Below, one piece after another: positions 16,496 through 63,970 of a stretch of 64,000 nt of DNA (within the stretch, counting starts at the first letter, position 1; each line of letters begins with the position of its first letter). The notes under the pieces were generated by a model. It made no database searches. It saw nothing but the letters and a program-made list of their open reading frames with translations, and was not told the DNA's origin. Made by a program: the position numbers and the translations under genes. Where the stretch lies: contig CM035350.1 of NCBI GenBank assembly GCA_020137815.1, forward strand, positions 1,054,001-1,118,000. Direction: 5' to 3'. Source of the DNA: Hormiphora californensis (lineage: Eukaryota; Animalia; Ctenophora).

Positions 16496-17993
16496 CATTC
16501 GTAAACATTCGTAAACATTCGTAAATAAATTTAGTATTGTACACAAAGCTTTAGCTCAAAAGGAGCCAACACTCAGATGACATGGAAAGTCAGCAGGTTA
16601 TATGTATCAGCCAAATGACAATGAAAAGCAAAACACATTTCTATGATTCGCCCATCTCTTTAAACACACTGGGGTCATTTCTCCAATCAATCAAGGAGTT
16701 ACTGTGCTCCACCCGGTAACCGCGGACAGGTGGCTGGTCGGGGATGGTGGTTAAGTAGGACCCAAGGGACTGTTTCAACTCGAGCAGTGATGTTGCCTCT
16801 CTCACTGCACGGGGTAGGGAATTCCACAACTGTGCTCCTCTAACACCGAATGATGAGTCATAAGGGCCAGATATGGATTTTTGAGCGAGGTAATTGTAAC
16901 GGGGGACCAATGCTCTGGTACCAAGACGGGTGTGCTCAGTAAACAGGAGACCCGTGCCGTTTGGAACTACATCATGAAGAACCTTCCAGACATGGATAAT
17001 CATGTATCGCTCACGACGCCGCTGGAGGGACAAGATACCAAGATGTTGGAGCCGATCCCAGTACCCCATACCGGAACAGCTCTCAATCCTACGTGTGAAG
17101 TGTCTTTGAGCCTCTTCAACCAGGGCGATATCAGACTTTTTCACCGGGCTCCATAATGGACAACAGTACTCCACCTGAGGCCTAATGATGGACTTCAGTA
17201 ACGTTAGCATAGTATCATCGGATCTATCCCGAAATACACTAAGTGCCCAGCCACTCATGCGTCTAGCCTTGGCAGTAATGCTGCCTATGTGTTCTGACCA
17301 AGTGCAGTCTGCAGATACAAGGACCCCTAGATCTCTCACAGTGAAACTTGGTGATATTGAGTCGCCTCCGGGACCATTGTAAAGATAATTGTCAGTGGAG
17401 AAAGGAAGCTCCCTCAGGAGTTGGGTGGAGCGAAGTGTATAATTTATCACCTCAAACTTATCCTGATGGAGTGACATATTGTTGTCTGAAGCCCAACGTC
17501 CAAATTCATTAAGACTCAGCTGCAGGTTATCTCTGTCGTTGAGTGACCTGATCGCTTTCCACAGCTTGGATTCATCTGCAAAAGTTAGGACTGTTCCCGC
17601 AAGAAGTGATTCAATGTCTATCATATAAACCAAGAACAGAAGCGGGCCAAGAACAGTGCCCTGGGGGACTCCACTAATGACGAGTTCCGGCCGAGACTGA
17701 ACTCCATCCACCACTACTGTCTGTATTCTAGCTGAAAGAAAGTCACTTATCCAGCGGAGAAGTCTTCCACGTATACCATACTTCTCAAGCTTGCCCAATA
17801 AAACTTTAATATCGACTTTATCGAACGCCTTCTCCATATCCAAATAAACAACATCCACTTCCAGACCGTTATTCAGTTCACGCATGATGTTGTCATAGTG
17901 GTTCAAAAGTTGGGTCAGACAACTCCTATTTCTCCGAAAGCCGTGCTGACCATGGGATGTGAGGGCAACAGGGCGATAGTTTTTAGCCTCCAT
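16496..17993 (-). mobile_element. 5'-truncated, inactive CR1/L2-type non-LTR retrotransposon (RT ORF 16641..17993)
   Basis: Motifs YRPVALTS, QHGFR, YLDMEKAFDKV, GVPQGTVLGPLLF and LWNSLP. Catalytic FADD reads FADE, and the usual spacer between YRPxxL and QHGFR is deleted. A 3' tandem tail (TTTACGAATG)x3 lies at about 16496-16525. Confidence 0.9.
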
Positions 17994-18107
17994 CTTTGAA
18001 CCCTAACGCTAAAATAGGAATTGAGATTTTGCCGCTATTTTGCCCCATCTATATTATAATTTTTTTTTTTTTTTTTTTTGGAAAAACAATTAAAAATATA
18101 TACACAA

Positions 18108-18416
18108 TCTATATTATAATTTGGAGATGAACGTCGAAGTCGAAGTCGTTCGTTCAGCGGTATCTAAGCGACAGGCTGCTCCTTCATAAAATACTTCATG
18201 TGCCCAAAGCTGTAAAGCTGTTGCTCACACTTTTGGAACTTCCAGTGGAAGTTTGTTGATATTTTCGAATGAGTTTTAACATGCCAGTCCCTATAGTTAC
18301 CAATTCAGTTGCCATGACAACCGTGTTATTGACGTTGAAAGGGCGAAAAGAACCAACCGGCGAAGCCGGGTGGGTTATCAAGGCCTTACTTGAGGCGCAC
18401 CCAATGGGTGCGCTAG
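18108..18416 (+). mobile_element. Non-autonomous Helitron (about 310 bp)
   Basis: A|TC 5' end, 3' hairpin GCGCACCCAATGGGTGCGC followed by CTAG|T; a second copy lies at 37687-37998 on the minus strand. Confidence 0.85.
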
Positions 18417-18931
18417 TATAATAATAAGTTACAAACCGCTCATTTAGACCCTTCTTTCTTTCATAGCACTTACATAACCAGAAGACCTGGAAAACCTTGG
18501 TCGACGACAAGAGGCTGTGGCTGTCAGACAGACCCGTATTTTGAAAATCAGGGCACTGGGGAGTGGGGCCTCAGCGACGGAGGAGCCGGAAGCATGGCAG
18601 TTAGCTGTTAAAGCTGCATGTGAATTCCCGTGGAATTATCCACCCGCCTAAGCCAGTAAGTCATGTGACAAAATTAGTCTGGAGTCACGAGCGATGAAGT
18701 TCCATCAAGTCCGACTACATGAGAAGGGAACGACAGAGCCTCTCCGAACCACCACAGGGTCATCACTAATCGCATTGCCATGAGCCATCTCCTCAGAGTC
18801 ACCGGTCACCTGATCTCTCTTTCTTGATAAATAAGCCTTTTAAGGGTTCACAAATATGCAGTTCATGTAAGGATTGTGGTATGTATACTTAACATTGTAT
18901 AGTGCATACATTGTATAGTGCATACACTACA

Positions 18932-20476: not shown

Positions 20477-21187
20477 GTGATGGCAGAAAACGAGTGTTCT
20501 GGTTCAAGAGAAAAGAATCGTCAAACATCAACGCGGCCTGTAAGAAGCTCAATCAGAGACCCCAAGGCGAACTATATTTTTAATTTGCTACGAGCTAAGT
20601 CACGGCTCATCAAGAAAGAAGACAACGGACAGACTTCAGAAAAAGCAGAAAGCAGCGATGGGTCGTCAGATAAACTGAGAAGAAAAAAGGGCGTCGAAAA
20701 TAGTTCCCGCCAATCAGAACAGTCAGAAAACCCTAGGTCCAAATGCTCTGGAAAGAGACAGAAAGATTGTCCCAAGAAACAAGAAAGTATGAAGCGGAAA
20801 AGAGATGTCCGAAAGACGTTGAAAGAGGCTCGAGAAGAGCTCGCACCCAAGGATGTTCTTGACTGTACCCCTTTACGGGGAATAAAGAAAGCCACCGACC
20901 TCTCCTTTCTTGGTAGCATATCCCCAATCAGTTTCGACACACCAGAGAAGAAGCGTCGCAAGAAGAAACCTGGGGAACAAAATATCACTCCTACTAACAG
21001 AGACAATGCTGATAGGTACTTGGTTCAGTTGCAAAGACGGCTAAAGAACGCCCCAAAATGTGAGATCCCTTCACAGATGATGAAAAACAAACCCAGTCAG
21101 TCGCAAATTTTTAATATTGATGAAGTGTTGGATGAAGAAACAGTCCCTATTGACGACGAAGAGGTACTGGATGAATATTTTGAATAA
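20477..21187 (+). CDS. Hypothetical Lys/Arg/Ser-rich protein with acidic tail
   Basis: 236-aa ORF with an AG just upstream (TTTAG GTG ATG) and an NLS-like PEKKRRKKK; no recognisable domain. Confidence 0.45.
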   Translation: MMAENECSGSREKNRQTSTRPVRSSIRDPKANYIFNLLRAKSRLIKKEDNGQTSEKAESSDGSSDKLRRKKGVENSSRQSEQSENPRSKCSGKRQKDCPKKQESMKRKRDVRKTLKEAREELAPKDVLDCTPLRGIKKATDLSFLGSISPISFDTPEKKRRKKKPGEQNITPTNRDNADRYLVQLQRRLKNAPKCEIPSQMMKNKPSQSQIFNIDEVLDEETVPIDDEEVLDEYFE

Positions 21188-21383: not shown

Positions 21384-21982
21384 ATGTCCACGTTTTCGAT
21401 TTCTTACCAGCCAGAAGAGGAGCCAGATCCACCATTCAATGGACTATCTTGCTCTTTCGACGAACAACAGTATCATCCTGATCAGCCTGATACAGCCGAG
21501 AATCCTCGGAAAATGAAAGCCGAGGATTATGGTAAGTTTCAAATTTTTGGTGATTATGCGACTCACCTGTGACTCCCAAAACCTTGTTTCCGTGCTCAAA
21601 CTCATTTCTCCCAGGCTGTATGAAGCGGCTAAGGATGAAGTCGGAACGGCTAGTGAAGGAGAAACGAGAATCCCCGGAATCCTCTAATGAAAGTGAGCAG
21701 AGAGAGAATGAGATCTCAGAAGAGAATGACATCTCAGAAGAGAATGGACAGAGCTCATCTGCATCAGTAGTGTTGGAAGTTTCTGAAGATCAAGAAAACA
21801 GCAATACCAACTCCGATGTTGAAAGTTTAAACTCGGGTCATCCTGAAGATCTGGGTGATCCTGAAAACAACAAAAACAGCAAAAACGGAAAAAAAGACAC
21901 AAAAGACAAAAACGGAAAAAACAACACTGTCGGCAACGACAACACCGTCGGCAACGACAACAATAATTACAAGCAACCTTAA
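21384..21982 (+). CDS. Hypothetical low-complexity protein (possible two exons, 21384-21531 and 21615-21982)
   Basis: Two ORFs separated by a GTAAG...CCCAG intron-like gap; E/S/N/K-rich. Confidence 0.3.
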
Positions 21983-22628
21983 GGCGGATGTTTGTCGATG
22001 TCTGGTGTGGGACGATCAATGCACATTCAGGTTTATAGCTGAGTGTGCCTTTATCGTACTACGCATCGAGAAACATGCGCCTTTAGAGACACTTACAAAG
22101 CACCTCCAGGCGCTATGTAACTGACTTTATCGCATTTCTGTGAACGATGAAGGGTGAGATTCCCTACTACGCCTAGCTCGGGCCGGGGCTAAGGTCTACC
22201 ATATTGGTAGCTATAGTTTCTAAAGACTCTCTAGAATCCTTTTAGTGTTACAGAAGTGAGAGAGAGAGAGAGCGTGTTTATTTATTAATGTCAATTTTAA
22301 GACGACAATTAACAGGGAACTTTTATTAATGGGAAATTTTTATAAAACTGGGCATAAAAATGTTGATTATTCAATGTATTTAAAATCAAAACTTTTATTT
22401 TTAATGTGTATCTTGAGATCTTATTTTATCTTTTTTTATCGGTGTTAATTTATTGGATGTGATATGTTTTGGCTTTTTTCATTTGACAGATTTTGTAAAC
22501 TGGTGTTATTTTCCTCCTCGAACCTCATTCACTTCCCCCCTGTGGAACTAGTAACTCCCACCCCTCTCCGGTTATCAATCCCTCCCCGCGTGTACCTCCT
22601 TTTAACCCCCTCTCTCCGTATTATAGTG

Positions 22629-23626
22629 ATGGACGATTATGTAGCAGAGTTTGAGCGGAAAAGAAAGAACAGCAAAGACACCCCAGTTGCCATTCTTGCT
22701 ATTCATGTTCTTAACGATTTTGTCAGTAAGAGTAATGTGGGAACACTTCAACAACTTCTAGAACAACTCAAGGTATCAAATATTTTCAATCTTCAACATT
22801 CAATATCTCGTCCTCGTCTCTCAATCGATGCCAACTCTAACACCCCCTTCCTCTCAGGAGCTCAGTAAACAGTTGAAGGCGACTGCAGGGAGTTCCACAA
22901 CATCTGTAGCATCTGGTTGTGATCTCTTTGTACGGTTCATTACCCTCTCCCGGGGTCAGAACGCCCCCTCCTCAGAGATCGATATCTTGGAGTGCAAGGG
23001 GTTCGATCCAGTGCGGAAATTCCTGGTTGATAGGGGCAACTTGTTCATGAAGAGGTTGAAGGATTCCAGGAGAAAGATAGCCCAGTTAGCGTACCCCTTC
23101 ATCTCGGACGGGGTTACAGTTCTCACTGTCAATATCTCCCGGGTAGTTCTCGAGATCCTGATGAAGGCCCACGAGAAGGCTAAAAAGTTCAAAGTGTTGG
23201 TGACTGAGGGCGAGGAGGGGCCTCTCATGGTGAAGAAACTAAACGACCAGGGCATCCAGGCAACTCTAATCCTGGATGCTTCTATTGGTTTTGTAATGGA
23301 GCGGGTCTCATTTGTTTTAGTTGGAGCAGTGGGGGTGGTGGAGAATGGAGGGCTTATTAACAAGTTGGGGACATATCCAGTTGCTGTGATGGCTCGATCC
23401 CTCAACAAACCATTTTATGTTGCCGTGGAGAGTTTCAAGTTTTATCGGAATTACCCTCTCAGTCAGCTGGATCTACCAAATGATGCGAAGTACGAGAATC
23501 CTGAGGACACAAAACACCCTGAGGTGGATTTTACTCCCCCGAAATACATCAACAAACTGTTCACAGATCCTGGGTGTACTCACCCCCTCGGCTGTTAGTG
23601 ACGAACTGATAAAGTTGTATATTTGA
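22629..23626 (+). CDS. EIF2B1: Translation initiation factor eIF2B subunit alpha
   Basis: SVASGCDLFVRFIT, VLVGAVGVVENGGLINKLGTY, KPFYVAVESFKF and C-terminal FTD(L)GVLTPSAVSDELIKLY. Intron 22773-22857; a 1-nt insertion at about 23569. Confidence 0.95.
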
Positions 23627-23703
23627 GTGTGTGAAATAATGTGTTGTGGTTATATTTTTGTTGTTTTAAAAACGAATTACCTTTCCCGTAGCTTCCCCTT
23701 CCC

Positions 23704-26700
23704 ATGTCTGGTGCCCTAGAGATGTATAACTCTGAGGAAGACGAGACTAGTCATGGTTAGTTAGAAGAGGGATCGTGGTTAATTTATACCATGGGGCCAG
23801 GGGGGTCGTGCTTAGTTTAGCAAGGGAACAGGCCACAGGGGTCATGGTTAGTTTATCAGAGATTATTGGGGGATGTTGAGAGCATGGTAATAATGTGGGT
23901 GGGGGGTAAGTAAGGGTTAGTTGGATTTGATCGTGTGGGGATCATTATGCGTTTATGGGGGGGGGGGGGGGGGCATGGATGCAATGCAAGGGAGGGGACT
24001 CCCCTCAAGGGATATGTTTATTTAGTGAGGTTACCGTGTGTTTTATTGACTACAGGTTGTTGTTACCAAGCTTCATTCTTCTCTAAAAGTTGGAAGGCCA
24101 TGTATGGAGCACCACCACTTCTCACCAAACCTCTCTCTCTCACCATCCCTCACCCCTACTGTAAGTGCTATTTGTTCATATAGCATGCCTGATAATATAA
24201 TCTATATGTTTCAAAATTCCGAATGAAGTTTGGTTTGTAAAACAGAGAACAGGGCCTGATTCCCTAGTTCTCTAATTTACAACAATCTGTAGCCAGGATG
24301 ATCAGATCACAATACCTTTTGCGTGTTAATCCTCTGATCTATAGACACGGTAACCTCACCCACCCTTCCTATCTGACCCCTCTCTTCTGTTTCAGAGGGG
24401 AAGAAAGAGGAGGAAGATGAAGAGGATGATGAGGCCTCTGGAGAGGAGCAGTCTCGAACAGTAACCTCAGACGAGGGCTCTAACCCACCAATAATTGATG
24501 ATGGGGATGGTTTCTCTGCGAATGAGGAACTATCCCAAGATGACGAGGAGGATGAGAGGTTCTCTGATGATGAAGATGCTGCTGGGTGGACTTTTGATGA
24601 TACCCTCCAGTCACCCCCACCAGGAGATAGAACTGTGACGTCATACTCGCCAGAGAATTCGTTCCAGGGAGAGCCGACACCGCCTCACAACAGAGAGGGT
24701 GAGCCGACACCGCCTCACAACAGAGAGGAAGCCCCTGCTGAAGAGTTCGAACCAGCCGCTCCAGCTGGGGATAATACCCCCTCAGATCAACCCCTGGAGA
24801 CTCCAGAAGATTCATTCGAGGAGGGGGATAGAGAGGAGGGGGACAGAGAAGAGGGGGCTGAAAGGGAGGAAGATGAGGAGAAGGGAGAAAGTGCAGAGAA
24901 GGGAGAAGATGTTGATGAAGAAGATAAGGAAGATCTGGAGATAGATGAGGAAAGCAAACCTGATGAAGATAAGCTTTCAGAGAAGTCAGCTGGAGAAGAG
25001 AGGGATGAAGAACCAGAGAAAGAAAGAATCGAGGAACTGGATAGATTATCAGAGAAGGAATGTGAAAAAGAAGAAGAGCCTGTTGAAGAAACTCAGGAAA
25101 CAGAGAGGGTGGCATCACCTGAACCTCACGATCCGACTGGTGAAGAGGTAGAAGGTGAGAGGGAAGAGAAACCAGGTAGTCCTGAAGAAGTTGAACCATC
25201 AACTGAGGAGGCTCAACCTGAGGAGGAGGAACCACTAGACAATACTGGAGATGAAACCAAGGATGTGGAGGAGGGGGTAGTAGACAAGGAAAACGATCAG
25301 AAGCTGATAAATGATCCATTTGATATGAAGGATGACTTGAAGGAAAAGCTGACTGAGTTTGGTGTGACTGAGCCTAAGAGAGATGGTGTGTACAGATGAT
25401 AGTCTTGAGAAGGAGAGCATGGAGATAGATGAAGCAGCAATGTCTCCAGTACCCACAACAGAAGAACCCAATAGAGAGGAGGAGGAGAAGGAGGAGATAG
25501 AAGAGAAGGAGGAGCCAAAGGAAGAGGAAGAAGGGATGGTTGAGTATGAGAAGAATGGAGGTTCAGAGTCCCCTGAGTATGCCATGACACCAGATGATCA
25601 GGTATCTGAGGAGAGAGATGGACCTCACACCCCTCCCCCTGCTACATCTCCCTACAATCCTGAAGAGCCAACCTCCCCACCCTCCCAGGGCCCAGTGCAC
25701 CCCACCAGGCCGTGGACCCAGGACCCCTTCGGGACCTCACACCCCAACCGAACCCCGCCCTGTCTCAGCCGACAGATCGTTCGAATCCAACACTTCAGAA
25801 GAGGGAGGTGTGCCTCCTTTTATTATGATCACAGAGAACGAATATCTTTCAGCTGCCAAGTAAGTTCTGTCTCATTCAATATTCATTCTCCCTCAATCTC
25901 CCTGACTTTCCAGTTAATTTGATTCCCTCCTGTGTCTCTCAGACAACTGTATTGTCTCCCCTCTTCTCTCAAATAATTGCATTGCCTCTCCTCAGGAAGA
26001 GATCAAGTAGAGACAAGAAGATGGTGTGCCAGTGTGACTTTGTTGCAGAGGACCCTGCCAGCCACTGCTCTGATACTTGCCTCAACAAAGTGCTCATGAT
26101 CGAATGGTAGGTCGTGTGTGGTGCCCTCACCCCTTCACTGTACCCACTTCCCCCTCACTTCACTCTGCTATTTCAGTAACTTCCGGCATGTGTTGTGTAT
26201 CAAACCTCTTTACCCCTCCCCACTGACCCCCTTCCTCTCCCGCTATACTAACACACTGTGTTTCAGCAACTCCCGGTGTCCGTGTGGAGACCTCTGTAAA
26301 AACAAGAAGTTCCAGAAGGCTGACTACGCCCGAACTGAGCCCTTTTACACTGGAATCAAGGGCTGGGGACTCAAGGCCACCCAGGATATTATGCCTGGAG
26401 ATTTTATCATGGAGTATTGTGGGGAGGTTGTGAATCAGAGTGACTTCAAGAATAGAATGGATGCATATGGGGCACGGAGGAACAAACATTACTACTTCAT
26501 GACAATTAGTAAAGATGAGATCATAGATGCGAACAACAAGGGAAACTTGTCCAGGTTTATCAACCATAGCTGTGACCCTAATTGTGAAACACAAAAGTGG
26601 AGGGTCAATGGGGTACTGAGAATCGGGTTCTTCGCTATAAAAACTATCAAGCAAGGCTCAGAGATCTGCTTCGATTATCAGTATCAGCGATACGGGTTAG

Positions 26701-29700
26701 TGAAGTTTTATCATATTACAGCTAGGCTATTATTACAGCTATCTGCTATGTTTTAGTTGGGGTAGAATGTAGATCCCCAGTAACATGCGTAAACAACATT
26801 AAACAACACATACATTCCCATTTCCAGTGACGATGTCCAGAAGTGCTATTGTGGGAGTGAGAAGTGTAGGGGAACATTGGGCGAGAAACTCTCTGAGCTC
26901 GCACCCAAGGCCACAGATAGCCCCAAACCAGGGCGACCAGAGCGAACAGAGACAAAGAAGAAAGATACAGAGTCAGTGGAACAGGCCCTTGCTAAGATAA
27001 CCCGGACATCAGATGGTGGTCTGCTCTCCACAGATCATGCTTTGCAACTGAGTAGGCTGATGGTACAAACTGATGGAGTTGAACACAGGATTCTCATACT
27101 GAAAACACTGCAGGTATTTAAATTGTCGCGATACTAAATCACAACCCATCACCCAAATAACGTAGAATCCTAACCCACTACTATCTAGAGAACCAAGGAC
27201 CCGAGTGCACTGAAGAGGTTCCTAAGTTACCAAGGCCTCAATATTCTCTGGTCCTGGATGGTCGATGTCAGTGAGATACCTGCACGACAAAGGAACGAGT
27301 TCAAACAGGATATCATCTCTGTACTGACAAACCTGCCCATAGCTACCAAGAACGCCGTGGAAGATAGCAAAGTCATGAAGGTTAGTTAGTAATTTCATGA
27401 GAGAGTGAGGTCACCCACCCAGCGTGGTATTCCTTTATATATCCCCTCTCATTTTACAGGTGGTAAAGAAGTGGGTGGATGGGGAACAGAGTAGCAGCAA
27501 TTCATCACAAGCAGACAGTAGTGAGGAGTGTGCCCCAACAGACACTACTACTGAACAAGAGACAGACACAGAGGGAGACAAGGCAGTTGTGGACCAAGCC
27601 CAGATACTACTTGATAGTTGGGGTACACTAAAAGAGGTCTTCAAGATACCCAAGAAGGACAAGAAGGAGGGAGGTACGTTCCTAGGATCCAGACAAATAT
27701 TTCATTAATTTAGTTTCTTTACTAATAGTTTGTCCCTCTCTACAGGTGGACCTAAATCGTTCTCTCTTGGTGCGTTCCTGTCCTCCTATAACGACTCCTC
27801 TTCATCGCCCCCTCTCTCCAACTCCCCGGGGAAGAAGCCCCGACAAGAGGAGTTCCCAGAGAAGAGAGCCAGTTCCAGGGAGGGATCCTGGGATCACCTG
27901 GGCAGCAAGAGACGCAGGGATGGAGAGAGAGACAGCAGGGACAATAGGAAGAGACAATGTGACGAGAGGGAGAGGTCACGTGATAGGTCACGTGATAGAT
28001 CCCGTGAGAGAGATGACTACAGGTCCTCCTACTCAGATAGAAGGTCCCGGTTTGATGATAGGAGAGATGCTGGAGGAAGGTTCAACAGAGATCGGAGAGA
28101 TGGAGGAGGGGGGAGAAGGGACGATTATAGGTCACGAGATGATAGGGGTGATAGAGGAGGAAGGTTTGATAGCAGTGATAGGGGAGGAAGGTTTGACAGT
28201 AGGAGAGACAACTTCAATAACAGAGGCAGATCACCCCCACCCCATAGAGGCAGGGAGCCTGGTGTAGATGAGTTTGGTCGGAGTATAGAAAACAGACCCA
28301 AGGAGTTGTCTAAACCACCCAGGATGTCACGGTTCACTGATAAAACAGATGAAGATGAGAGACCACCCTCCCCTGACCAGCCCCCTCCAGAACCTGTAGT
28401 ACCAGAGAAAATGATGTCTCCAGCCCCCAAGGTGCCACCAATGAGGTATCCCCCGCCCCAATTCGAGGGGACCAGACCGCCCTGGTCTGGGAGGTTTCAA
28501 CCCCAGGGTGCAGGCTGGTGTCCCACCTATGTTCAGACCACCAGTTGGCAGGATGCCCGATCTGAGCAGCATGACCAGACCCCCTGGCATGGATCACCAA
28601 GAGTTCAATAAACCTCCCCCTGAACCCCGGGCACCCCTCATGAGGTACCGACCTGACACTAGACCACAACAGCCACCACGGTACGAATACAGGCCCCAAA
28701 CTAGACCATCTTGGAATACCCGGTATCAGGCCCCTCCACGGTTTATGGAAAGTAGACAGCAGGCCCCCAGAATGCCACTAGGTGCCACACCCCGCCTTGC
28801 CGCTGCTAGCCAACTAGGAGGGTTTGGACTCCAGCAGATGCAGCCCTTCCAGGCGGCTCAGCAGGCAGCGGCCCAGCAGGAATACTTTAAACATATTGCA
28901 GAACAGAACATGCAACAGAATATCCAGAACATGATGATGCCATCAGCAATCGCATTTGGAGGAGCTCATTTACAGGTATATAATCAGGTTTGAGGCAGTC
29001 AGGTTGTACAATAATTGTCGCGGCAGGTTCCTTCCCGCGCGGTGTATATTTGAGCTATCGCTAGTTTGAGGCGCGCTCCCAATGCTAAGCAGCAAGATGA
29101 CAGCACTTGCTGCACCACCGTCCCACAGCTGACACAGTACAAAACACAGCGGATAGCTGTCACAAACTCCACGCACAAACAAGAAATAGTTGATTGCAGA
29201 TACACTAGCAGCTAATACGTCATCTTTACAATAGGGTTCAATAAATCTCCCAGCAATCCTCTTCCTCCTCTCACTCACAGTAGTCCAATCTGTCTTCTTC
29301 ATCATTCCATGGAAGCTGTCATTTGAGTGTTCAGGGTGTGAGAGCGTCCCAGAGATATCCCTCCACTTCCTAGCACTGACACTTCCCCCACATATCACAT
29401 AGAGGGCGAGGAAGGTGGCCTCTACAGCGGGCGGGGGCTGCTTAAACGACTTGATAATGACAAGATCTCTACTGTATACATTTAGGCAATCTGCAAGAGC
29501 TCTCTCGGCAGCCATGCATGCAAACAACAAGTAACGTGTTATATCTCCTCTCTCAGGGTATGTTAGCGAGTAACGCGGCAGCACTGCAAACAGTGGCGTC
29601 TACTGCACAGCTTCCTGTGACTAAAGCAACACCATCTCCCAATCTTGCTACAATCTCTTGTGAGTAGGGACACAAAATATCAGGCTACCCAGTGAACCCC

Positions 29701-30696
29701 TTATCCCCGATATCTCACTCCTTCATCTCACTTCTTCTCTCTACCCCAGTGCACCCTTAGTAGTTAGTACACCTTTATGTCCTCGATACTAACTCTTTCT
29801 TCTCTCCTCCTCCAGTACCCCAGCACCACCCGCCTCCTCAACAACACCAGCAACATCAGCAGCATCAACCTGCCCTTCCAAAGGAGCCAGAACCGTTCAA
29901 AGCAGCCCGACCCCCTCCCACCGCTGCCCCTCCAAAACAGGAGGAGAAGAAGATGCCTCCCCACTGGAGAACAGCCAAGGATGCAGATGGGAAGACGTAT
30001 TATTATCATGCTATCACTAGGGAAACACAATGGGACCCCCCTGAGGAGCCAGGGAGCCGACCTGCTGTACCACCCGTTCAAAGTGAAACACCCGCCTCAC
30101 CAATGAAACCTGTAGTACAGCAGCAGCAGCAGCCACCCATACAGAGGGGCAGACCCAAAGAGAGCTTTGAGAGTCCCCAGAAACCACAAAAGGTAACAAC
30201 TACTAGAAAAAGTTTAGAACAGGTTTAGATGTAGTGTATAACTTCTTAGATTCGATGGTCCTAACAATTTGATCCCAATCAGATGGCTAAGAAAAGTGAG
30301 CCCCAGCCGGTTGCTCACAGCGTCGAGAAAGACATGGATCCGGCTGCTAAAAGGGCACTCAATGATTTCAAGGCCCAACTTGCCAAGGTGGTAGTGGGAG
30401 TGCTGGGAAAGTACAACAAAGTTGATTGTAATATTGGCCGCATCATGGACAGTAAAGACTTCAAATATCTTGCCAGAAAGGTAAACTCCCCCTCTTTTTG
30501 TCCCGAACCCTCTTGTGACATGTGGCCCTCTTCTAACACCTACCCCCTCTCTCAGCTGACACATGGTCTGACGGAGAAAGAGATGCAGCGCAAAGCTCCA
30601 GGAGAGTTGTGTGTTACGGACAGTCTTAAACAGAGAGTTAGGCAGTATATATCTAGTTATATGAGTAAGTTTGGTCCTATCTATCATCGGACGTAG
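23704..30696 (+). CDS. SETD2: Histone H3K36 methyltransferase SETD2/Set2
   Basis: Acidic N-terminus, AWS, SET (KGWGL...RFINHSCDPNCETQKW), post-SET CYCGSEKCRG, WW (PPHWRTAKDADGKTYYYH...TQWDPP) and SRI (DFKYLARKLTHG) domains across GT-AG exons. Confidence 0.93.
28970..29515 (-). CDS. Stand-alone dynein heavy chain stalk microtubule-binding-domain (MTBD)-like protein, nested antisense in a SETD2 intron
   Basis: ALADCLNVYSRDLVIIKSFKQPPPAVEATFLALYVI...W...L...F...D...DVLAASVSAINYFLFVRGV follows the dynein MTBD pattern; lies essentially within SETD2 intron 28976-29556. Confidence 0.65.
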   Translation of the reverse strand: MAAERALADCLNVYSRDLVIIKSFKQPPPAVEATFLALYVICGGSVSARKWRDISGTLSHPEHSNDSFHGMMKKTDWTTVSERRKRIAGRFIEPYCKDDVLAASVSAINYFLFVRGVCDSYPLCFVLCQLWDGGAASAVILLLSIGSAPQTSDSSNIHRAGRNLPRQLLYNLTASNLIIYL

Positions 30697-31185
30697 TTAG
30701 TCTGGGTGTGTATGTTTATGAGCGGGCATTTAATTTGAGATTCTGTATCTGTGTGTGCGTCTATGTGTAAGTACTTTTACTACCGGGGTTATACGAAAGA
30801 GAAAGTGTTCCCCTCATTTATCTAACGACAGTGTTATATTGCAAACCTCCCTTTTAGGAATGTATGCTTTCTTATTTTATAAACCCCATTAAACTGATTT
30901 GTTTAATTTGATTTTACAATGTGATGGGAACCAATGTGATCACAATGGGAACCAATGTGATCACAATGGGAAGTGGGAACCAGAATGTGACTTGATGAGT
31001 AAGGGGTCTCTGGCCCTCCCCTTACTCAAATTCACTACATTATCTCTTCGTGAACGAATGGAGGGCGCGAAGGTTTTATTCTTACGCTGCTGGATTCTGC
31101 GCGGCGCGAGTAAAAGTTTTCTCACAATCAAATTAAATCTGAAATTTCAACTCACAAACTTGTTTGCAGTTTCAAAAATCACGAG

Positions 31186-33684
31186 ATGGATCCGTTTCTT
31201 GTGAAAAAGATCCCTAAAGACACTGTTTCACGGCTTGAGGAGTTTGCTCTGTACCTCAGAGAAAGCAAGAAAGAGCGGAGATCATATGTCAGTGTCGTAA
31301 AAACTCTCAACGTTTTCAGAGTAAGTTGAAAACTCCTGCCAAAGTTCGATGAGTCTACTTTTCGGACTTCGGTCTCCCGCGAGAATAATGATATTGCACA
31401 CGATCAACAATTATTTTTCCTTGCAAAGCAGATACAGTTTGCAGTCAACTTTAATCCTGCATACTTCCACAGGACCTGATCTGTACTGCAGAGTGGGTTA
31501 CGGCCCGAGAGCTCATCAAGATCATCAAATGTTACTGTAAATACCTCCCACTGAGCCAAAGCAACGAAACCGATGTTAGCAACGTGGTACGGAGAATCCT
31601 CAAAATCATTCGAGAAGAGAATGCCGGCCCTGAAGCAACCAGTCTGGCTGATGGGATCTCAGCTTTCTTTAAATCGGACATGAAGCCCTCAAACCTAGGC
31701 AGGTTTGAATGCGCATGAGGGTGACTAGTTAATGATATATAGTGATTTATGTCAGGATAATATTGGAGAATAACACTGCCCCTCATCAGGTCGGACCTGC
31801 AAGACAATATCCTGAACAGTATAGTGGAACTGCTTGTTGAATTGGATACCAGCAAATCTAACATAATCAACATGGCTCTAGAACATATACACTCAAATGA
31901 GGTCAGTAGACAATCCTTCAAACTCCCTTTCTATAGCTCCCTTCTTTGGACCCCCCCCCCCTTTCGAGTTAAATAACAACCCGTTATCCAGTCATATTTT
32001 CAGCGAATCCTCACATACGGCCACTCCAACACGATACGAGATTTCCTGTTACATGGTCGGAGAGCCAGGAACTTTGAGGTGATTGTGTGTGAGAGTGGGC
32101 CCTCTCTCCAGGGACACAAGATGGCTGCTGAACTTAGTGAGGGAGGAATCAAAACTACAGTGATAGCTGACAGTGCTGCTTTTGCTATTATCCATGCAGT
32201 AAACAAGGTAAATCAATCTTGTTACACAGCGAACAATTTCCCCCTGAATCTAACTTGTAACTAGCCATCCCTGAATATCTCCATCTAAATGGTGTTGTGT
32301 TTTGCAGGTCATTATAGGAACCCATACAATCATGGCTGATGGTGCACTCCGGGCTACTAATGGGGTTCACCAGTTAGCAATGGCGGCCAAGTATTTCTCA
32401 GTCCCTGTTATAGTGTGTGCTGCACTCTACAAACTATCACCCACCCACCTGTGCTCCTATGATCCCGATGCGTTCAATAAGGTCATAGGGCCTGAGAACA
32501 TGCTGAACTTCAGTAACGCTAAACTACACTCCAAGGTTAGTGCTGAGTTAGTTGTTTTGTAACTACCATTGAGCGGGTATTGATTAGTGACATTTGTAGC
32601 CATGGTGATGAAGTTGATAGGACTGGGAGGGGGAACCAACTCAGGCAAGACAACACTCTGTACCCAACTATCTGCTGCCTTCCCTGGATCTATCCTGGTG
32701 TTTAACCAAGACAAGTATTTCAAGACCCTGGAGGAGGCAGAGAAGGTGTTCCCAGAGGGGGAGGTGAACTGGGAAACTTGCAATGCGCTACACATGGACC
32801 AGCTAGTAGAGGACGTGAAAAAGGCACGAGAGGAGAGGAAACACTCTATTATAATAGTTGAGGGGCATCTCGTCTTGTCCTACCCTCCCCTTTACAAACT
32901 ATTCAATAGGATGTTCTTTGTTACTCTGCCACTTGACATGGCTAAAACGCGACGTGACACCAGGACATATGATCCTCCCGATGGTCCGGGTTACTTTGAG
33001 AATGTTGTGTGGCCCATGTATAATGAGATATATGGGGAGGTCCGGCAAAATCCTGACCTTGATGTGACATTTCTGGATGCAACCGAACCGGATACCTGTT
33101 ACAACTTTTTAGAGCGTGTAGTAAAAAGCTATCTTGATTGAGATGAAGTTATCTAGCGGGAATTATTTACTTGAGGACTTAAAGGTTTTAGAAGGAGAAT
33201 GTAAACTGTTTTTTATGTGTGTAATTGTGCTTGTGATATGTTTTTAAATTTGATGGGTTCTCTCTTTAAAGTTTATCGACTTCATGGTGCTGTGTTCTTA
33301 GTTCCAACCTTCCCTTTAGTTCCAACCCTCCCTTTACAGGTGCTGATATCTAATCCTGATTTCGACTACGTGCCAAGTGATCTGATAGAGTTGTTTATCA
33401 CCAACACTGGTGGACATGCTCCCTCATACCTCTACAGAATCATATCAGGTACTGCACACCGCCTCTCCCAACTAGATTCATTGTACTAAATTGGTTCCTT
33501 TCCTCCTCACTCTACCCTGTTTTCCCAACCTCAGCTCTCTGAACACCATCAGTAACCACTAACCCCTCCCCCGCTAAGAGTTATAACACCCTTCATTAAC
33601 CTCTCTTCTCCCCCAGAGTTGTATCACCCTGACGACTACGACCTTGATAACATGTGTGTAGAAACTGTGGAGGATGAACTATGA
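31186..33684 (+). CDS. EIF2B2: Translation initiation factor eIF2B subunit beta
   Basis: VSNVVRRILKIIREE, ALEHIHSNE, VIVCESGP, IADSAAFAIIHAVNKVIIGTHTIMADGAL and [39 protein letters not shown]. Confidence 0.95.
32602..33141 (+). CDS. NMRK1: Nicotinamide riboside kinase (NRK/NMRK), intronless, nested on the same strand in an EIF2B2 intron
   Basis: LIGLGGGTNSGKTTL P-loop, QDKYFK, IIIVEGHL and RRDTRTYDPPDGPGYFENVVWPMY. Confidence 0.9.
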   Translation: MVMKLIGLGGGTNSGKTTLCTQLSAAFPGSILVFNQDKYFKTLEEAEKVFPEGEVNWETCNALHMDQLVEDVKKAREERKHSIIIVEGHLVLSYPPLYKLFNRMFFVTLPLDMAKTRRDTRTYDPPDGPGYFENVVWPMYNEIYGEVRQNPDLDVTFLDATEPDTCYNFLERVVKSYLD

Positions 33685-33812
33685 ATTTGATATTTTATTT
33701 TGTGTGTGTCTTATGATACGGATCTCTAATTCTTTCAATTACAGTGTTTTCCTATAATACATCTCACCACCCCAACTCCCTAAATAACCCCCATCTCTCT
33801 CTGTGTAGCATC

Positions 33813-34864
33813 ATGGCGGTGGAAGGTCGCACCGTGGCTCCCCCCGTTCGCAAAGTTATTATTCCACCCTGTGGTGCTATTCAACATTGTCGACAGCTTT
33901 CGAGAGGCGGAATGACAACTGTAAAAGAGTCATCGGAACCCTCATGGGTCGCTACGACAAGGGTGTTATCTACGTGACAGAGTCCTTTGCTGTCCTCACC
34001 AAGAGACTGATGAGGAGGTATCCATGGGGATGGATTATGCCATGAGAATCAGTGAGATGCAGAAGAAAGTTAACACGAACATGTACACGGTGGGGTGGTA
34101 CAGTAGTGGTATACAGATAAACGATTATAGCAGTCTCATCCACTCCTTCTACAAGGTCCAGTTCCCATCCCCCGTCCATCTAACTCTGGATACCGCTCTA
34201 AAGGTAACGTAACTTCAGTAATCTAAGGGTGGCTGATAACAGGTTTCGGGTCAGGTTTCATGTAACAGGTATCACGTAGCAGGGTGACAGGTAGTAGTGT
34301 TGTTCTTATCTAAACCTTTCCGTCTCAGGAGCAAAAGATGAAGATCAACACACACATCACCCTCCCTATTGGTGTGAAGAATGGAACTGAGGGGTGCATC
34401 TTTACCCCTGTCCCTCATGAAATCAAGGGATCGGAGGCTGACCAAGTGTGCCTGAAGTTCTTCCAGGGCCTCAAGGGAACCAGGAAAACGCCCAACTTCA
34501 ATGATCCAGAGCAGATAGTTCACAGTTGTGATGATATGATGACCCAAATCAATGTTATCTTGGGATACGTCAAACAGGTAACCATGGTAACCTACAAAAC
34601 ACACAATAATACTAATATGTAGCCTATAACACCACGTGGTAACCCCCTGCGTCCCTCCCACAGGTATCAGCTGGTGAGATGCCCATGGATAAGGAGGTGG
34701 GACGACAGTTGATGGAAGTAGTCCAGTCGATACCCAACCTGGAGTCGGATACCATTACCAACATGTTGAACTCTCACATGCAGGACTTATTAGCGGTGGA
34801 GTACTTGACGTATTTGACGAGACAGCAACTTGCCATTGGAGCCCGAATCAACCAGATTCTTTGA
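33813..34864 (+). CDS. EIF3F: Translation initiation factor eIF3 subunit F (MPN domain)
   Basis: HPVVLFNIVDSFERR...RVIGTLMG, VGWYS, SPVHLTLDT and NSHMQDLLAVEYL; three single-base indels in exon 1. Confidence 0.9.
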
Positions 34865-35031
34865 GGGAGTTTACATCTCTTTTAACATTCCTTGTTTTAT
34901 TTATTGAAGCCTTCCCCGGGAAACATCTTGAGTCTTGTTTCTATTAAACTCCGTGATTTTACTTGCCCCCCCCCCCCTCCGATACTACTTCAATACTGAA
35001 TAGAAGCTCAATATCTCTCACAGTTTAGGAC

Positions 35032-36568
35032 ATGGTATCTTGTGATGAAGATGATGATGAAATACCCTTTCTAATTCCAGCAGACAAACCTTCAATACCA
35101 GTCACCATAATAACAGGTAAACACACAATATCAAGATTAGAAACCACCCCCCCCCCCCCCCCCCCCGGATAATATTGAATACAACATTCTCCTTCTAGCC
35201 ATCCTTGAATACAACTCCCTCTCCTTCTAGGCTATCTAGGGGCGGGAAAGACAACACTACTGTCCTACATTCTGACAGAACAACATGGTAAAAAGATAGC
35301 AGTGATAGTGAACGAGTATGGGGAGGGAGAGGGAACGGAGCAGCCTGGAGCACTAGGTGTCGGAGAAGACAAGTAGGTAAGAGTTAACTCTTACAACTCG
35401 AGTTGTAGTTAGAGTTTTGGGGGAATGCTGCTCTCGGAGCTATATTGACACACGCCCTCCCTCCCTGATATAGATACGAGGAATGGTTAGAAATGAACAA
35501 TGGGTGTTTATGCTGTAGTGTGAAGTCTGACACGGTGATGGCACTTGAGAAACTTATGGAGAAGGCGGGGAAGTTTGATTACATTTTAATTGAAACCACC
35601 GGTTAGTAACTAACTTGTTGTTAAATGATCCAGTAGTAGCTACCTCCCCTTCTAGACAACTAACTTAGGTCATCTTGCCCTGTTAGTTCCCATTCTGAAC
35701 TCTCTCCCAGGTTTGGCTGATCCAGGAAATATTGGCCAGACATTCTGGGTGGATGAGGGTCTATCTCAGCTATATCTAGATGGTATAGTGACCATGGTAG
35801 ATACTCACAACTTCGCCCGGACTAAGAAAGAAAGTAGGGGCAGTGAGTTTGGGAGACAGATCGCACTGGCTGATGTTGTGATTCTCAACAAGATGGACAT
35901 GGTGGATCAGATGACAAGGAATCAGGTTGCAGCTGATATCAGATCCATGAATAGTGCGTGTATAGTACAGTTCACAGACCACAGCAGAGTGAACCTGGAT
36001 GGGATATTGGGAATTCAGGCTTACACCAGTGTACCCCCTCCTAGGTAAGATATTTCCAGGGAAACTATTTTCCTGAAGATCCCTGTGACACCAAGTGTAT
36101 TGACACATACCTCTCACCAGTACTGTGAAACATGAGATGTCAGAAGGTATCTCAACTATAACTCTCACTACGGAGAAAGTGTTGTGTAGGGAGGATCTTG
36201 AAAACTCCCTCCAATCCCTTCTGTGGGCCGAACAGCCTGAAACTGCCTCTGATAATAACCGGTCAGTTGATTGTACCAATTGTTTATCAAGATGTAGATT
36301 TTTCAGCAAAATTCCCCAATACTTGTGTTCCAACTCCCCCCCCCCCTATTTCAGATCACACGGTGCTGCTGATAGTGATGATATGGTGATCCTGAGAATG
36401 AAGGGTCGAGTACACACTGAGGATGGGTGGTTCATGGTACAGGGTGTAAGAGATCTGTACGAGCTCACACCGATACCTGATCCAGAGTCCCAACAACATC
36501 TTATCTTTATCGGATCACATCTCGACTCTCAGAGACTCCAAAATGTCACTAAAATGTATCCGAGATGA
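35032..36568 (+). CDS. ZNG1: Zinc-regulated GTPase metallochaperone ZNG1/CBWD (COG0523)
   Basis: [49 protein letters not shown] and CobW-C ILRMKG...VQGVRDLY. Confidence 0.92.
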
Positions 36569-36933
36569 TTTATTGTTTTATAGTTGGAGGATTTATTTGT
36601 GAACGGGTTTGCTAAATAAAGTGCGATTTTTAATAATGCGAACCGGGGGCGCGCATTAATAATAACATAATTCCATTTGCGCGTGCTAAATCCGGTTCCT
36701 GATAAGATAGAGACTTTTCATTAGTCGCATTAGAAAGATACAGTTTTTTTCTTTTCAACGCACCCAGGATCAAGTCTTTATCTTATCAGGAGCCAGAGAT
36801 ATGATCAAAACAACCGACAAAAAACTTTCCCACGGTGCGTGGGAATTTTTTGCGGTTCGCTTTATTAAAAATCGGACTTTATTTATGTTTTAATCTCCCG
36901 ATATACCTCTAACCTCTACCCCCGTAATTAGCG

Positions 36934-37274
36934 ATGTTCTTGGCTCGGCAACACGCCGCCTTACTGCCCAAGCATGCTGCTGGCATCGCCTCTCTGCCCA
37001 ATGCCATCATTACGAGGATCGCGGGACGGTTCAAGACCGAGGAGGAGTACAAGCCTCATGTAGACCTCGAATTGGAGCAGAAATACGATGTGCCCATCCA
37101 CGAGTTGTTGAGCAGGCTGCCCGTGGGTAGCAGTGAGGGAGCCATGGTGATGGAACAATATGTGGGACATATCCCCTGTAATGGAGCCCTCGCACCAACG
37201 GTATAAACCACCTTATATCATGTACAATAATATCTTTGCTACTCGTCCTCTCTCTCTCTCCTCTCCTCTCTCTC

Positions 37275-37312
<38 letters not shown>

Positions 37313-39903
37313 AGCTATCTCTTCATTTCTATCTCAATTTCTCTCTCTCTCTATCTCTTCATTTCTATCTCAATTTCTCTGTCGTCTTTGTCTATTTTCT
37401 ACTCTATATGGGGATCTCATCACGCACAGTGGACTGCTGGGTGAAATGTGGGATCTGATAACCACTAGGATGATCTGATACTCAGTGGGGTGATCTGATC
37501 CTGGGTGGGGTGATCTGATCCTCAATGGGATGATCTGATCTTGGGTGGGGGGATCTGATCCTCAGTAGGGTGATCTGATCATGCATGTTGGGTGATGTGA
37601 TCTGATCTTGATGACGACGATTTAGGGACCACCAAACATGCATGGGTGGGATCAAGTTTCGGGTGTTTTTGCATTATATAGTAAGACTAGCGCACCCATT
37701 GGATGCGCCTCAAGTAGCTTTTTGATTACCCACCCGGCTTCGCCGGGTGGTTCTTTTCGCCCTTTCAACGTCAATAACACGGTTGCCATGGCAACTGGAG
37801 TGGTAACTATGGGGACTGAATTATTAAAATTCATTCGAAAATATTAACAAACTTCCACTGGAAGTTCCAAAAGTGTGAACAGCAGCTTTACAGCTTTGGT
37901 CATATGAAGTGTTTTATGAAGGAGCAGCCTGTCGCTTAGATACCGCCTAACGAACGACCACCACTTCGACGACGTTCATCTCCAAATTATAATAGAGATA
38001 CTATTGTTTAACACCCCTTCACCCTATGCTAATGTTATACCATGCCAACACCTCTCACCCCCTGTAGGTAACTGGAGACAGGTTGTCCAACGGAGTGGCT
38101 ACAGTTGCTGTTGACTCTGCCAGCCCCATTGTACACCTGGGCGTCTACCTGGGACTGGGAACTCGACACGAGACCAAGGCCACTGCTGGCATGCTCCAGG
38201 TCATGAAACATGCCTGGTTGGGCACCACTACCAGGCGAACACTAGTTGGTGGAGCTAGGGAGCCCGTCCAGTGTGGAGCTAACATTGTATTTACCCCTGG
38301 TAGGGATGTTACTTCTATCACCGCATCCTGCCCCCGGGACAAGGCTGACCTGTGAGTAACATAAATCACAAAATAAGTTATCAGTTATGAGTTACCACCT
38401 AACCACTAATCGTTAGTTACAACTGGCTCCAACTACCCGGTAACTGCACGCACATCTCTAGTTACTAACTATTGTGTTTCAGTGTGCTCGACCACATGGT
38501 ACAGAACCTGATCTGTCCAGAGTTTTTCAACCACGAGCTGCACACCCCCATCGCTAGAGCTGCACAGACCTCTGCTGTAGAGCTGGCAAACCCTCTTAAC
38601 CGCATGCTCGATACGGCTCACCAGGTAGGTCAATTAATGGATCTAGAGGTGTAGGTCGTCTGTACATATAATTGTGAAACCAACCGACAATGTAGGTTGC
38701 AGTTGTCTGTTCTTTCTAAGTTCAGCCAACAAATCTCCCCTCCACAGTTGGCATATCGAGGAACTGGACTTGGCCGATCTCTCTACTACGCAGGAAACTC
38801 TGGTCTGGACAGGGATGCCTGTCTTGACTTTGCTCTGGAGAACTTCAGGGATTCTAATAACATTGCAGTTGTTGGTGTAGGTATGTAACCCGGTAACATC
38901 CCCAGATCACTGCATCTCTCTCCTTTCTCTCTCATTTCCCCATATTACTCATCTTCCAGGCTGTAACGGTCTTTCTTTCACCCAGGATTTGATGCTGATA
39001 CAGTTAACGTGTTGGCTGATGAGTTCCTGTGGTCTCTAGAAGGAGGTTCTGTCTCTAGCGCTCCATCCACCTGGACCGGAATGAGGGACGCACACATTGA
39101 GGCACCCGGAGCTGGGGGCCGTGCCCTATTCCTGAGTGAAGGAGCCCCCATTGGCAGTAAGGATGCCCTAACTCTGGACCTTATTGGGTACCTAGTGGGA
39201 GGAAGTGCAGCACCCAGTGTAGCTCATGGTGCTGTCCAGACCAAACTAGCTGCAGCAGTTGGGGCTGTAGCTGGAGGTCCCTTCACTTCAGAGACTGTCA
39301 ACATCAGTTATAGGGACTCTGGAATGTTCGGCCTCTCTGTATCAGCAGCTAACGGAGCTGAGGTAACAAAGATATGTTTTCATACCACTAATCTATTAAC
39401 TGCACTTCTATCTAACACATCTAACCACTCTCTGTTCCCCTGAATCCACATCTATATCTAACATCTCTGTTCCCCCTAGCTCGGTGATGTGTTGAAGTGC
39501 TCTATTGGTGTCGTCAGGGGAGTTAGTCAGGGTGTATCTGATGAGGATCTACAGGGTGCTAAGAACCGACTCAAACTATCTGTCCTTAATGAGGTACCTC
39601 TCCATCTCCTTTCTTTCCTTCTTCTCTACTCCTTTTCTACTCCAAGATGTCCCCCACTATTTAACCATTCTAACACTCCTCCCTCCCATCTAGCGATCCA
39701 GCGTGTCTGGTGTTCTGAACGGTACAGCAACTGAAGCCCTTGCTGGGGGAGCTGCACGATCAGCGGGAGATATCTGCGCTGCTATTGATGCTCTTACTGC
39801 TGAAGATGTCATTGCTGTGGCTAAAAAGGTTGCCACATCTCAGCCGGTCCTGGTTACCTACGGATCTGCTGAAGATATGCCCCTTCAAAGAGAACTCATC
39901 TAA
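36934..39903 (+). CDS. UQCRC2: Cytochrome b-c1 complex core protein 2 / M16 peptidase-like, mitochondrial
   Basis: LSNGVATVAVDSASPIVHLGVY..GTRHE, NISYRDSGMFG, DLQGAKNRLK and IDALTAEDVIAVAKK...YGSAEDMP; no HXXEH motif seen. Confidence 0.82.
37470..37610. repeat. About 21-bp tandem repeat (GGGTGATCTGATC core) in UQCRC2 intron 1, after a CT microsatellite
   Basis: Repeated GATCTGATC units seen directly. Confidence 0.8.
37687..37998 (-). mobile_element. Non-autonomous Helitron, second copy
   Basis: Reverse-complement homologue of 18108-18416 with the same TC/CTAG termini and terminal hairpin. Confidence 0.85.
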
Positions 39904-62133: not shown

Positions 62134-62500
62134 CTGGTGTAAAGGTAGAGACTAGAGTACACAATACCATGTATGTTGTACAGTGTTGCTATATAGTAGG
62201 GACGAATCTTAATTTTTTGACACACTATTTGGTGAAAAGCAAATTCCGGTTGTAACACACCTATTTTGACCCGCTGAACAAGATCCCGTTCATAGGTAAG
62301 GTCGCAAAATTGGAGAACATGCCCAAATCGGCCACGCCCTTTTACCTGTATTTTTAGCCTGTAGCCAAAAACATAAATCCTCTTAGAATAGGAGTAGAGA
62401 CAAATCTAAGGGCACTAAAGTGATCAGCGCCCTCGCATTAGTGGGGGTAGGTACCGGAATTAAGTCTCTATCTCATCTGGTTAATTAGATAATTGGATAA

Positions 62501-63856
62501 TTATACAAATTAAAAACAACAGCAGTTTTTAAGGTCTATACACATGTTTCATGGTGCCCCACGAGGAGGCACCAATCATCAGTAGACAAAGATCAAAATG
62601 AGAATGAATTGGGATAAAGTATGACTCCTTCATAAAAACAGTCAGTCGAACGTTCCTATTTAGAATTAGTAGCTCCATTTCACGTCACATCTTTGTATCT
62701 TGGACCTCTAGATTCCCCAGTTTCAAAGTACGTCAACCATTTCCCTTTCTTGGAGTGTGTAATCTGTATTCCATTTTGATCATTGTTCCTCAAAACCAGA
62801 CGTCGTACGTGTCCTCAGATCCACAAGAGAGCTCAACCACAAATAAATTGAGGGAGCATTGCATTATAGCGAGTTTAGTAGATTGATGACAAGATAGATA
62901 TCCTGTCCCTTGGTCCGAGATCAACAGAGAGCTCTAGCACGGGGTTAGCCGGCGAGCAGTTTATACAAATTAAAAACAACAGCAGTTTTTAAGGTCTATA
63001 CACATGTTTCATGGTGCCCCACGAGGAGGCACCAATCATCAGTAGACAAAGATCAAAATGAGAATGAATTGGGATAAAGTATGACTCCTTCATAAAAACA
63101 GTCAGTCGAACGTTCCTATTTAGAATTAGTAGCTCCATTTCACGTCACATCTTTGTATCTTGGACCTCTAGATTCCCCAGTTTCAAAGTACGTCAACCAT
63201 TTCCCTTTCTTGGAGTGTGTAATCTGTATTCCATTTTGATCATTGTTCCTCAAAACCAGACGTCGTACGTGTCCTCAGATCCACAAGAGAGCTCAACCAC
63301 AAATAAATTGAGGGAGCATTGCATTATAGCGAGTTTAGTAGATTGATGACAAGATAGATATCCTGTCCCTTGGTCCGAGATCAACAGAGAGCTCTAGCAC
63401 GGGGTTAGCCGGCGAGCAGTTTATACAAATTAAAAACAACAGCAGTTTTTAAGGTCTATACACATGTTTCATGGTGCCCCACGAGGAGGCACCAATCATC
63501 AGTAGACAAAGATCAAAATGAGAATGAATTGGGATAAAGTATGACTCCTTCATAAAAACAGTCAGTCGAACGTTCCTATTTAGAATTAGTAGCTCCATTT
63601 CACGTCACATCTTTGTATCTTGGACCTCTAGATTCCCCAGTTTCAAAGTACGTCAACCATTTCCCTTTCTTGGAGTGTGTAATCTGTATTCCATTTTGAT
63701 CATTGTTCCTCAAAACCAGACGTCGTACGTGTCCTCAGATCCACAAGAGAGCTCAACCACAAATAAATTGAGGGAGCATTGCATTATAGCGAGTTTAGTA
63801 GATTGATGACAAGATAGATATCCTGTCCCTTGGTCCGAGATCAACAGAGAGCTCTA
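62501..63856. repeat. 460-bp tandem repeat, about 2.95 copies
   Basis: Units start TTATACAAATTAAAAACAAC at 62501, 62961 and 63421 and look identical by eye; the third is cut at a TA by a palindrome. Confidence 0.95.
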
Positions 63857-63970
63857 TCTCCAACCGGTTAGCCGTTATTTGGCTTAAACGATGCTCAAAA
63901 TGAGCGAAAAACGGTAAAAAGCCCGATTTTGAGCATCGTTTAAGCCAAATAACGGTTAAACGGTTGGAGA
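63857..63970. mobile_element. TA-flanked foldback MITE
   Basis: TCTCCAACCG...CCGTTATTTGGCTTAAACGATGCTCAAAAT pairs with ATTTTGAGCATCGTTTAAGCCAAATAACGG...CGGTTGGAGA. Confidence 0.8.

Follow-up and report, generated by a model that had tools for sequence, protein, structure and literature searches.

Spliced-leader addition to EIF3F mRNA and probable co-transcription within a compact housekeeping gene cluster of the ctenophore Hormiphora californensis

The EIF3F mRNA encoded by a plus-strand gene cluster of Hormiphora californensis receives the ctenophore spliced leader at the AG in front of its start codon, and EIF2B2, EIF3F and ZNG1 on the one hand, and EIF2B1 and SETD2 on the other, are each read off in one precursor RNA according to the interpretation that we favor with reasonable, though not high, confidence. 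The leader junction was observed in plankton RNA, and the case for co-transcription is built largely on spacing. We suppose that EIF2B2, EIF3F and ZNG1 would be transcribed together and EIF2B1 with SETD2 as a separate precursor, that each precursor would be cut by polyadenylation, and that leader splicing about 100 bases downstream would then supply a cap to the next RNA. Each unit would have one shared promoter, the remaining acceptors would use the leader as well, and breaks at the 489-nt and 365-nt gaps would leave two or three units: EIF2B1-SETD2, EIF2B2 (with an NRK-like gene)-EIF3F-ZNG1, and UQCRC2 alone. Co-transcription thus probably covers the first two of these and not all six genes. 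The features in question, in coordinates of the window (the whole 64,000-nucleotide stretch of DNA analysed), are as follows.

22605-22626, plus strand: candidate leader acceptor of EIF2B1, a pyrimidine tract and AG 2 nt before the ATG (3.3 bits)
22629-23626, plus strand: EIF2B1-like gene (IF-2B family); intron 22773-22857; small indel near the 3' end in the assembly
23627-23703, plus strand: EIF2B1-SETD2 spacer, 77 nt, 43% T; acceptor AG ends at 23691; lacks a usable donor
23704-30696, plus strand: SETD2-like gene with SET, WW and SRI domains
30697-31185, plus strand: SETD2-EIF2B2 spacer, 489 nt; ATTAAA at 30888; acceptor AG ends at 31169
31186-33684, plus strand: EIF2B2-like gene with six introns; RNA to at least 33710
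32536-33339, plus strand: EIF2B2 intron 5, 804 nt; spliced out in RNA contigs from two studies; NRK-like gene inside
32602-33141, plus strand: NRK-like (nicotinamide riboside kinase-like) gene, intronless, 179 aa, nested in EIF2B2 intron 5
33685-33808, plus strand: EIF2B2-EIF3F spacer, ending in the AG (33807-33808) that is the spliced-leader joint in runs X1 and X6
33813-34864, plus strand: EIF3F-like gene (JAB/MPN) with two introns; three small indels relative to RNA contigs
34865-35031, plus strand: EIF3F-ZNG1 spacer, 167 nt; poly(A) site at 34920-34923 (one X6 contig); AGs end at 35023 and 35028
35032-36568, plus strand: ZNG1/CobW-like gene with five introns
36569-36933, plus strand: ZNG1-UQCRC2 spacer, 365 nt; AATAAA at 36615; 33-nt inverted repeat; acceptor AG ends at 36931
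36934-39903, plus strand: peptidase-M16-like gene with six introns; Pfam matches below cut-offs; UQCRC2 is the name given in the original prediction

All six head-to-tail plus-strand genes of the original prediction were located, with domains that agree, and its stop-to-ATG gaps of 77 nt (EIF2B1-SETD2), 128 nt (EIF2B2-EIF3F) and 167 nt (EIF3F-ZNG1) are exact. The two remaining gaps, which it did not give, are long (489 nt between SETD2 and EIF2B2, 365 nt between ZNG1 and UQCRC2), and measured from stop to AG the distances are 65, 124 and 159 nt in the short gaps and 473 and 363 nt in the long ones. The 77-nt value depends on the EIF2B1 stop at 23626, which sits in another frame behind a small indel; the C-terminal residues of a 73%-identical homologue agree with the frame that stops there. 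Since RNA contigs contradict the three EIF3F indels, these are probably assembly errors. Further plus-strand open reading frame (ORF) regions upstream of EIF2B1 (20480-21187 and 21384-21982), each with an AG 1-3 nt before its ATG, may extend the cluster; the two upstream ORFs scanned (20480 and 21620) gave no Pfam match.

Small shares of the window were found in six plankton RNA runs. Contigs from four of the seven runs listed (from four studies) were mapped on 31000-35140 only; EIF2B1, SETD2 and UQCRC2 lie outside this stretch. The mapped contigs are mostly 90-99% alike to the window, which points to the same or a closely related species as their source. The original prediction had proposed a search for a common non-genomic leader at the AGs, and one was found at that of EIF3F: in two of the four runs, from two studies (X1 and X6), the known ctenophore leader is joined exactly at the EIF3F acceptor (33808). 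The loose contig ends before 33807 read ACTACTTTAAACAAATTAATTTG in X1 and AACAAATTAATTTG in X6, and once the genomic AG is added they are identical to the final 25 and 16 bases of the leader sequence printed for H. californensis (PMC8527503). The 3' end of the EIF3F leader, of which the last 25 nt were seen, is also that of the common leader on at least 120 unrelated contigs, and a 16-nt leader core is absent from the window at up to 3 mismatches, where about one match is expected by chance. The other two EIF3F contigs begin within the ORF.

The prediction of leader trans-splicing at the cluster as a whole is thus borne out at one of the four acceptors in the RNA-mapped stretch; of 20 loose ends, the 15 examined show no leader at the acceptors of EIF2B2, NRK or ZNG1. 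The NRK and ZNG1 5' ends lack RNA contig cover, so that absence of a leader there is no evidence either way. At EIF2B2, a contig from X1 crosses the acceptor to 31165, with 24 more letters that, by arithmetic, were not counted as unlike the window; it looks more like an unspliced molecule or a leaderless 5' end, as would fit the first gene of a unit. None of the leader-bearing contigs (at least 120 among the matches listed) matched the window by blastn, or by tblastn for eight exon proteins. Three of them (L044, L060 and L064) have the leader with 27-121 nt of sequence upstream of it and similar downstream starts, and are possibly leader copies captured in a repeat. Leaders are carried by at least 56% of Hormiphora reads (PMC8527503), and the presence of one therefore does not imply an operon.

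The claim that an AG closely precedes each of the six ATGs is accurate in every case: ATGs at 22629 (EIF2B1), 23704 (SETD2), 31186 (EIF2B2), 33813 (EIF3F), 35032 (ZNG1) and 36934 (UQCRC2) follow AGs that end at 22626, 23691, 31169, 33808, 35028 (with a second ending at 35023) and 36931, respectively. With an acceptor matrix built from the 31 cis introns of the cluster, and AGs sought within 20 nt of an ATG, the six score 1.4-3.7 bits (the leave-one-out median of cis acceptors is 5.7), and an AG as good as each cluster acceptor precedes only 4.5-8% of the 2028 ATGs in the window (Fisher p = 5.6e-4). A simple acceptor rule, whose threshold was chosen after the sequences had been seen, accepts 7 of 7 genes and 25% of all ATGs. 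In the leader-bearing contigs among the matches listed, the median distance from leader to first ATG is 11 nt; it does not exceed 20 nt in 89 of 120 contigs and is exactly 2 nt in 18. The AG-to-ATG distances of 2-16 nt in the cluster are thus ordinary for leader-bearing ctenophore genes, operonic or otherwise, and since such mRNAs as a rule have an AG close to the ATG, acceptors alone do not mark operon genes.

Could these AGs simply end ordinary cis-spliced 5' UTR introns, with no leader involved? The leader junction refutes this for EIF3F, and the three short gaps are without a donor: their best donor scores are -1.5, -3.8 and -1.1, where real donors have a median of 3.9 and a lowest value of -1.2. 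In the two long gaps, where the best scores are 1.1 and 0.6, such introns are possible, as is a cis-spliced 5' UTR for EIF2B1, which has a strong (4.3-bit) donor upstream at 22031. As an account of the AGs in general we consider cis splicing very improbable. The original description of the acceptors as unpaired therefore stands for the three short gaps, which lack a plausible donor, and is not established for the long gaps or EIF2B1. PSMC5, to which it extended the pattern, has an acceptor that scores 9.7 bits, like that of a cis intron, which makes a cis-spliced 5' UTR possible there, and the gene is on the minus strand, convergent with the cluster and outside it. In human PSMC5, an intron precedes the corresponding methionine.

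In RNA contigs, joints mark five of the EIF2B2 introns, and the sixth is indicated by loose ends matching the exon that follows. A contig from run X3, whose joint side extends 97 nt from 33614, carries EIF2B2 to 33710. The leader junction lies 98 nt further on, so that on this one contig the EIF2B2 3' end is at most 98 nt from the EIF3F acceptor. Likewise, one X6 contig has 19 A's behind 34923, which places the EIF3F poly(A) site 100-108 nt before the ZNG1 AGs. In C. elegans the median spacing of predicted operons is 99-105 bp (PMC7986045). In chaetognaths, operons were recognized by spacing below 250 bp together with a leader on one or more of the genes (PMC12460157), and EIF2B2-EIF3F-ZNG1 has both. 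Such short distances from 3' end to acceptor are found within that trio, and the two long gaps, measured from stop to AG, do not share them. RNA products that span neighbouring genes, which the original prediction had also proposed to look for, did not appear: no contig bridges two genes among the plankton contigs examined (four shallow runs, 31000-35140; all but 61 of the pieces and 15 of 20 loose ends). Since no bridging contig was seen, and promoters could sit inside upstream genes, spacing is not proof of co-transcription.

The main competitor, which we regard as unlikely but worth serious consideration, is a compact cluster of monocistronic genes, each with its own promoter within the final exons or introns of its upstream neighbour, in which the leader replaces an outron overlapping that neighbour. 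The prevalence of leader splicing in ctenophores, the usual nearness of AG to ATG in leader-bearing mRNAs and the lack of a bridging contig all agree with it, and cryptomonads have leaders without widespread operons (PMC5619915). It is opposed by the measured distances of at most 98 nt and of 100-108 nt between 3' end and acceptor, by the NRK acceptor only 64 nt behind a used donor (below), by an RNA contig elsewhere that bears two ORFs (below) and, weakly, by the short spacers, which hold only 1-3 CpG each; CpG and T content separate short from long gaps weakly.

Co-transcription might on the other hand reach further than we propose. The single strand throughout and the acceptor before every ATG would suit one long operon of all six or seven genes with its promoter upstream of EIF2B1, a special case of co-transcription, and spacers of about 500 bp are present in predicted Trichuris operons (PMC7986045). 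However, the two gaps of 365-489 nt make a single six-gene unit doubtful: each contains a poly(A) signal and then 300 nt more, together they hold GC-rich patches and repeat fragments, and one EIF2B2 contig apparently keeps upstream sequence. We therefore judge the single long operon improbable, and the operon claim of the original prediction is retained here for EIF2B2-EIF3F-ZNG1 and EIF2B1-SETD2, which the spacing supports. The SETD2-EIF2B2 spacer, with a GC-rich patch at about 31050-31115, is a possible promoter of the second unit. The repeat fragments of the ZNG1-UQCRC2 gap, at 36613-36885, are also present elsewhere in the window, and a 314-nt repeat in UQCRC2 intron 1 (37686-37999) is shared with 18107-18417.

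EIF2B2 intron 5 is spliced out in X2 and X3 and contains an intact NRK-like ORF of 179 codons, absent from the original prediction, which fits the description of a parallel nested intronic gene, that is, a whole gene in one same-strand host intron. The acceptor AG of this gene (32598-32599) has a low score (-6.3 bits). Only 64 nt separate it from the host donor, less than the length of the shortest of the 31 cis introns (72 nt), and cis splicing from the host donor to this AG would meet a stop after two codons. Judged from its length, the interval between host donor and NRK acceptor would have no room for a promoter. The simplest account of NRK mRNA would be that the leader is spliced onto the EIF2B2 precursor or the excised intron, the mRNA being freed by splicing at 32599 and 3'-end formation within intron 5; alternatively, a promoter within the EIF2B2 exons could drive it. 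In C. elegans, operon genes inside introns are known. Contigs from three of the four runs cover the NRK ORF in part, with the intron flanks and the 5' end uncovered, and this cover could also come from DNA or precursor RNA, the ORF being intronless. In another assembly, one protein (P0016) continues from the same EIF2B2 exon (87% identical) into NRK after 28 intervening codons, and this NRK belongs to a cluster about 60% identical to the NRK of the window; the same nesting in a distant relative indicates that the layout is old. The nearest named NRK relative is from Bolinopsis microptera. A scan of metagenome contigs with the NRK alignment gave 251 pattern matches and no relative. A broader idea, which we put forward tentatively and would not yet bet on, is that ctenophores have leader-resolved operons, and that their many same-strand nested genes are promoterless cistrons cut from host introns by leader splicing. 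NRK in EIF2B2 intron 5 would then be an old and conserved case, produced in place of EIF2B2 mRNA or out of the excised intron.

SETD2, EIF2B2 and EIF3F follow one another in the same order in a Pleurobrachia bachei gene model (P0312), which joins the three as one 1665-aa protein (compared with 27544-34861 of the window) and repeats the end of EIF2B2 and most of EIF3F; the fusion is likely a prediction or assembly artefact. Single-exon matches between model and window are 96-99% identical, and an EIF3F-like fragment 84% identical to the window groups with the P. bachei model. The model is thus from the same or a sister species and is not a case of deep conservation of gene order. A search for ZNG1 relatives gave one near-identical fragment and otherwise relatives of 36-45% identity; a 39%-identical protein on a 6220-long contig was set aside as linkage evidence, as it is from another source. 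An EIF2B1 relative on a 4867-bp contig had no match among the NRK contigs.

A second candidate operon comes from another locus. One of the 80 long leader-bearing contigs among the matches listed (L076, 1-1339) consists of the leader, a complete ubiquitin-RPS27A, a 155-nt gap, a complete RPL13 and poly(A), and the gap has a T-rich AG 119 nt past the stop and 36 nt before the RPL13 ATG. The codon usage of its two ORFs (0.16 and 0.18; reference mean 0.07) fits that of other leader-bearing contigs. The exact RPL13 sequence is absent from the protein collection searched, so the ctenophore origin of L076 rests on codon usage and context. Both ORFs are spliced-looking, and as a single assembled contig from another locus L076 is suggestive only. 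Seven two-ORF contigs were considered; five were taken, on the basis of the encoded proteins, for single genes disrupted by frameshifts, and L074 was rejected as a two-gene RNA as it is a chimera with a bacterial-type gene, which indicates that assembly joins do occur. The bacterial-type half of the chimeric contig has a codon usage of -0.03, still inside the reference range. Other members of the RPS27A cluster are on contigs of 905-1052 nt, which exceeds the expected single mRNA.

Several further features were noted in the window. A convergent minus-strand run (46863-40661) includes PSMC5 and a UBE2D-like gene (named by eye) with an AG 6 nt before its ATG; the gaps in this run are longer, and a possible small two-exon gene lies within it near 43750. 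A small zinc-finger-like gene on the plus strand (8120-8550) is apparently antisense within an intron of a SEC24-like gene (both named by eye), and a LINE-type, reverse-transcriptase-like remnant (by eye) occupies 16700-17990 on the minus strand. A minus-strand gene is interrupted at 58690-60080 by a long inverted-repeat element, each end of which has tandem AAAAGGCTGCAG-type units, and a unit of about 420 nt is present in three tandem copies at 62480-63860. No Rfam match was found in the window.

Ctenophore leaders and parallel nested genes are already in print: the H. californensis genome paper (PMC8527503) describes spliced-leader trans-splicing with a leader 3' end identical to that seen at EIF3F, as well as parallel nested intronic genes. 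Its main text has no occurrence of "operon" or "polycistron", and in the parts that treat leaders these are not tied to gene spacing or to nested genes. Our literature search turned up no report of operons in ctenophores; they may be mentioned in Derelle 2010, Douris 2010 and Moroz 2014. If true, our interpretation extends operons to ctenophores, among the earliest-branching animals, and suggests a mechanism, open to test, for the parallel nested genes, which had no explanation in the Hormiphora genome paper. It also calls for caution with ctenophore gene models that fuse neighbours, as the P. bachei model does with SETD2, EIF2B2 and EIF3F. Among known systems, the Hydra RFC140-flp operon resembles the cluster in being non-bilaterian with a T-rich spacer and an AG acceptor, and was proven by reporter and mutation tests (PMC3273482), whereas the ctenophore cluster is a candidate operon. 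The C. elegans SL2 operons share with it a distance of about 100 nt from poly(A) site to acceptor (PMC7986045, PMC3795323) and appear to differ in their operon-specific leader: none was seen here, where the last 25 nt of the EIF3F leader are those of the common one. Operons without a specialised leader are described in Ciona and Oikopleura (PMC7986045) and in the chaetognath Paraspadella (PMC12460157), and, like the cluster, these consist of housekeeping genes with short spacers, and the leader is used by single genes as well. The cluster differs from them in its spacers (about 100 nt, compared with 1-60 nt in the tunicates), in its intron-nested candidate cistron and in belonging to a different phylum.
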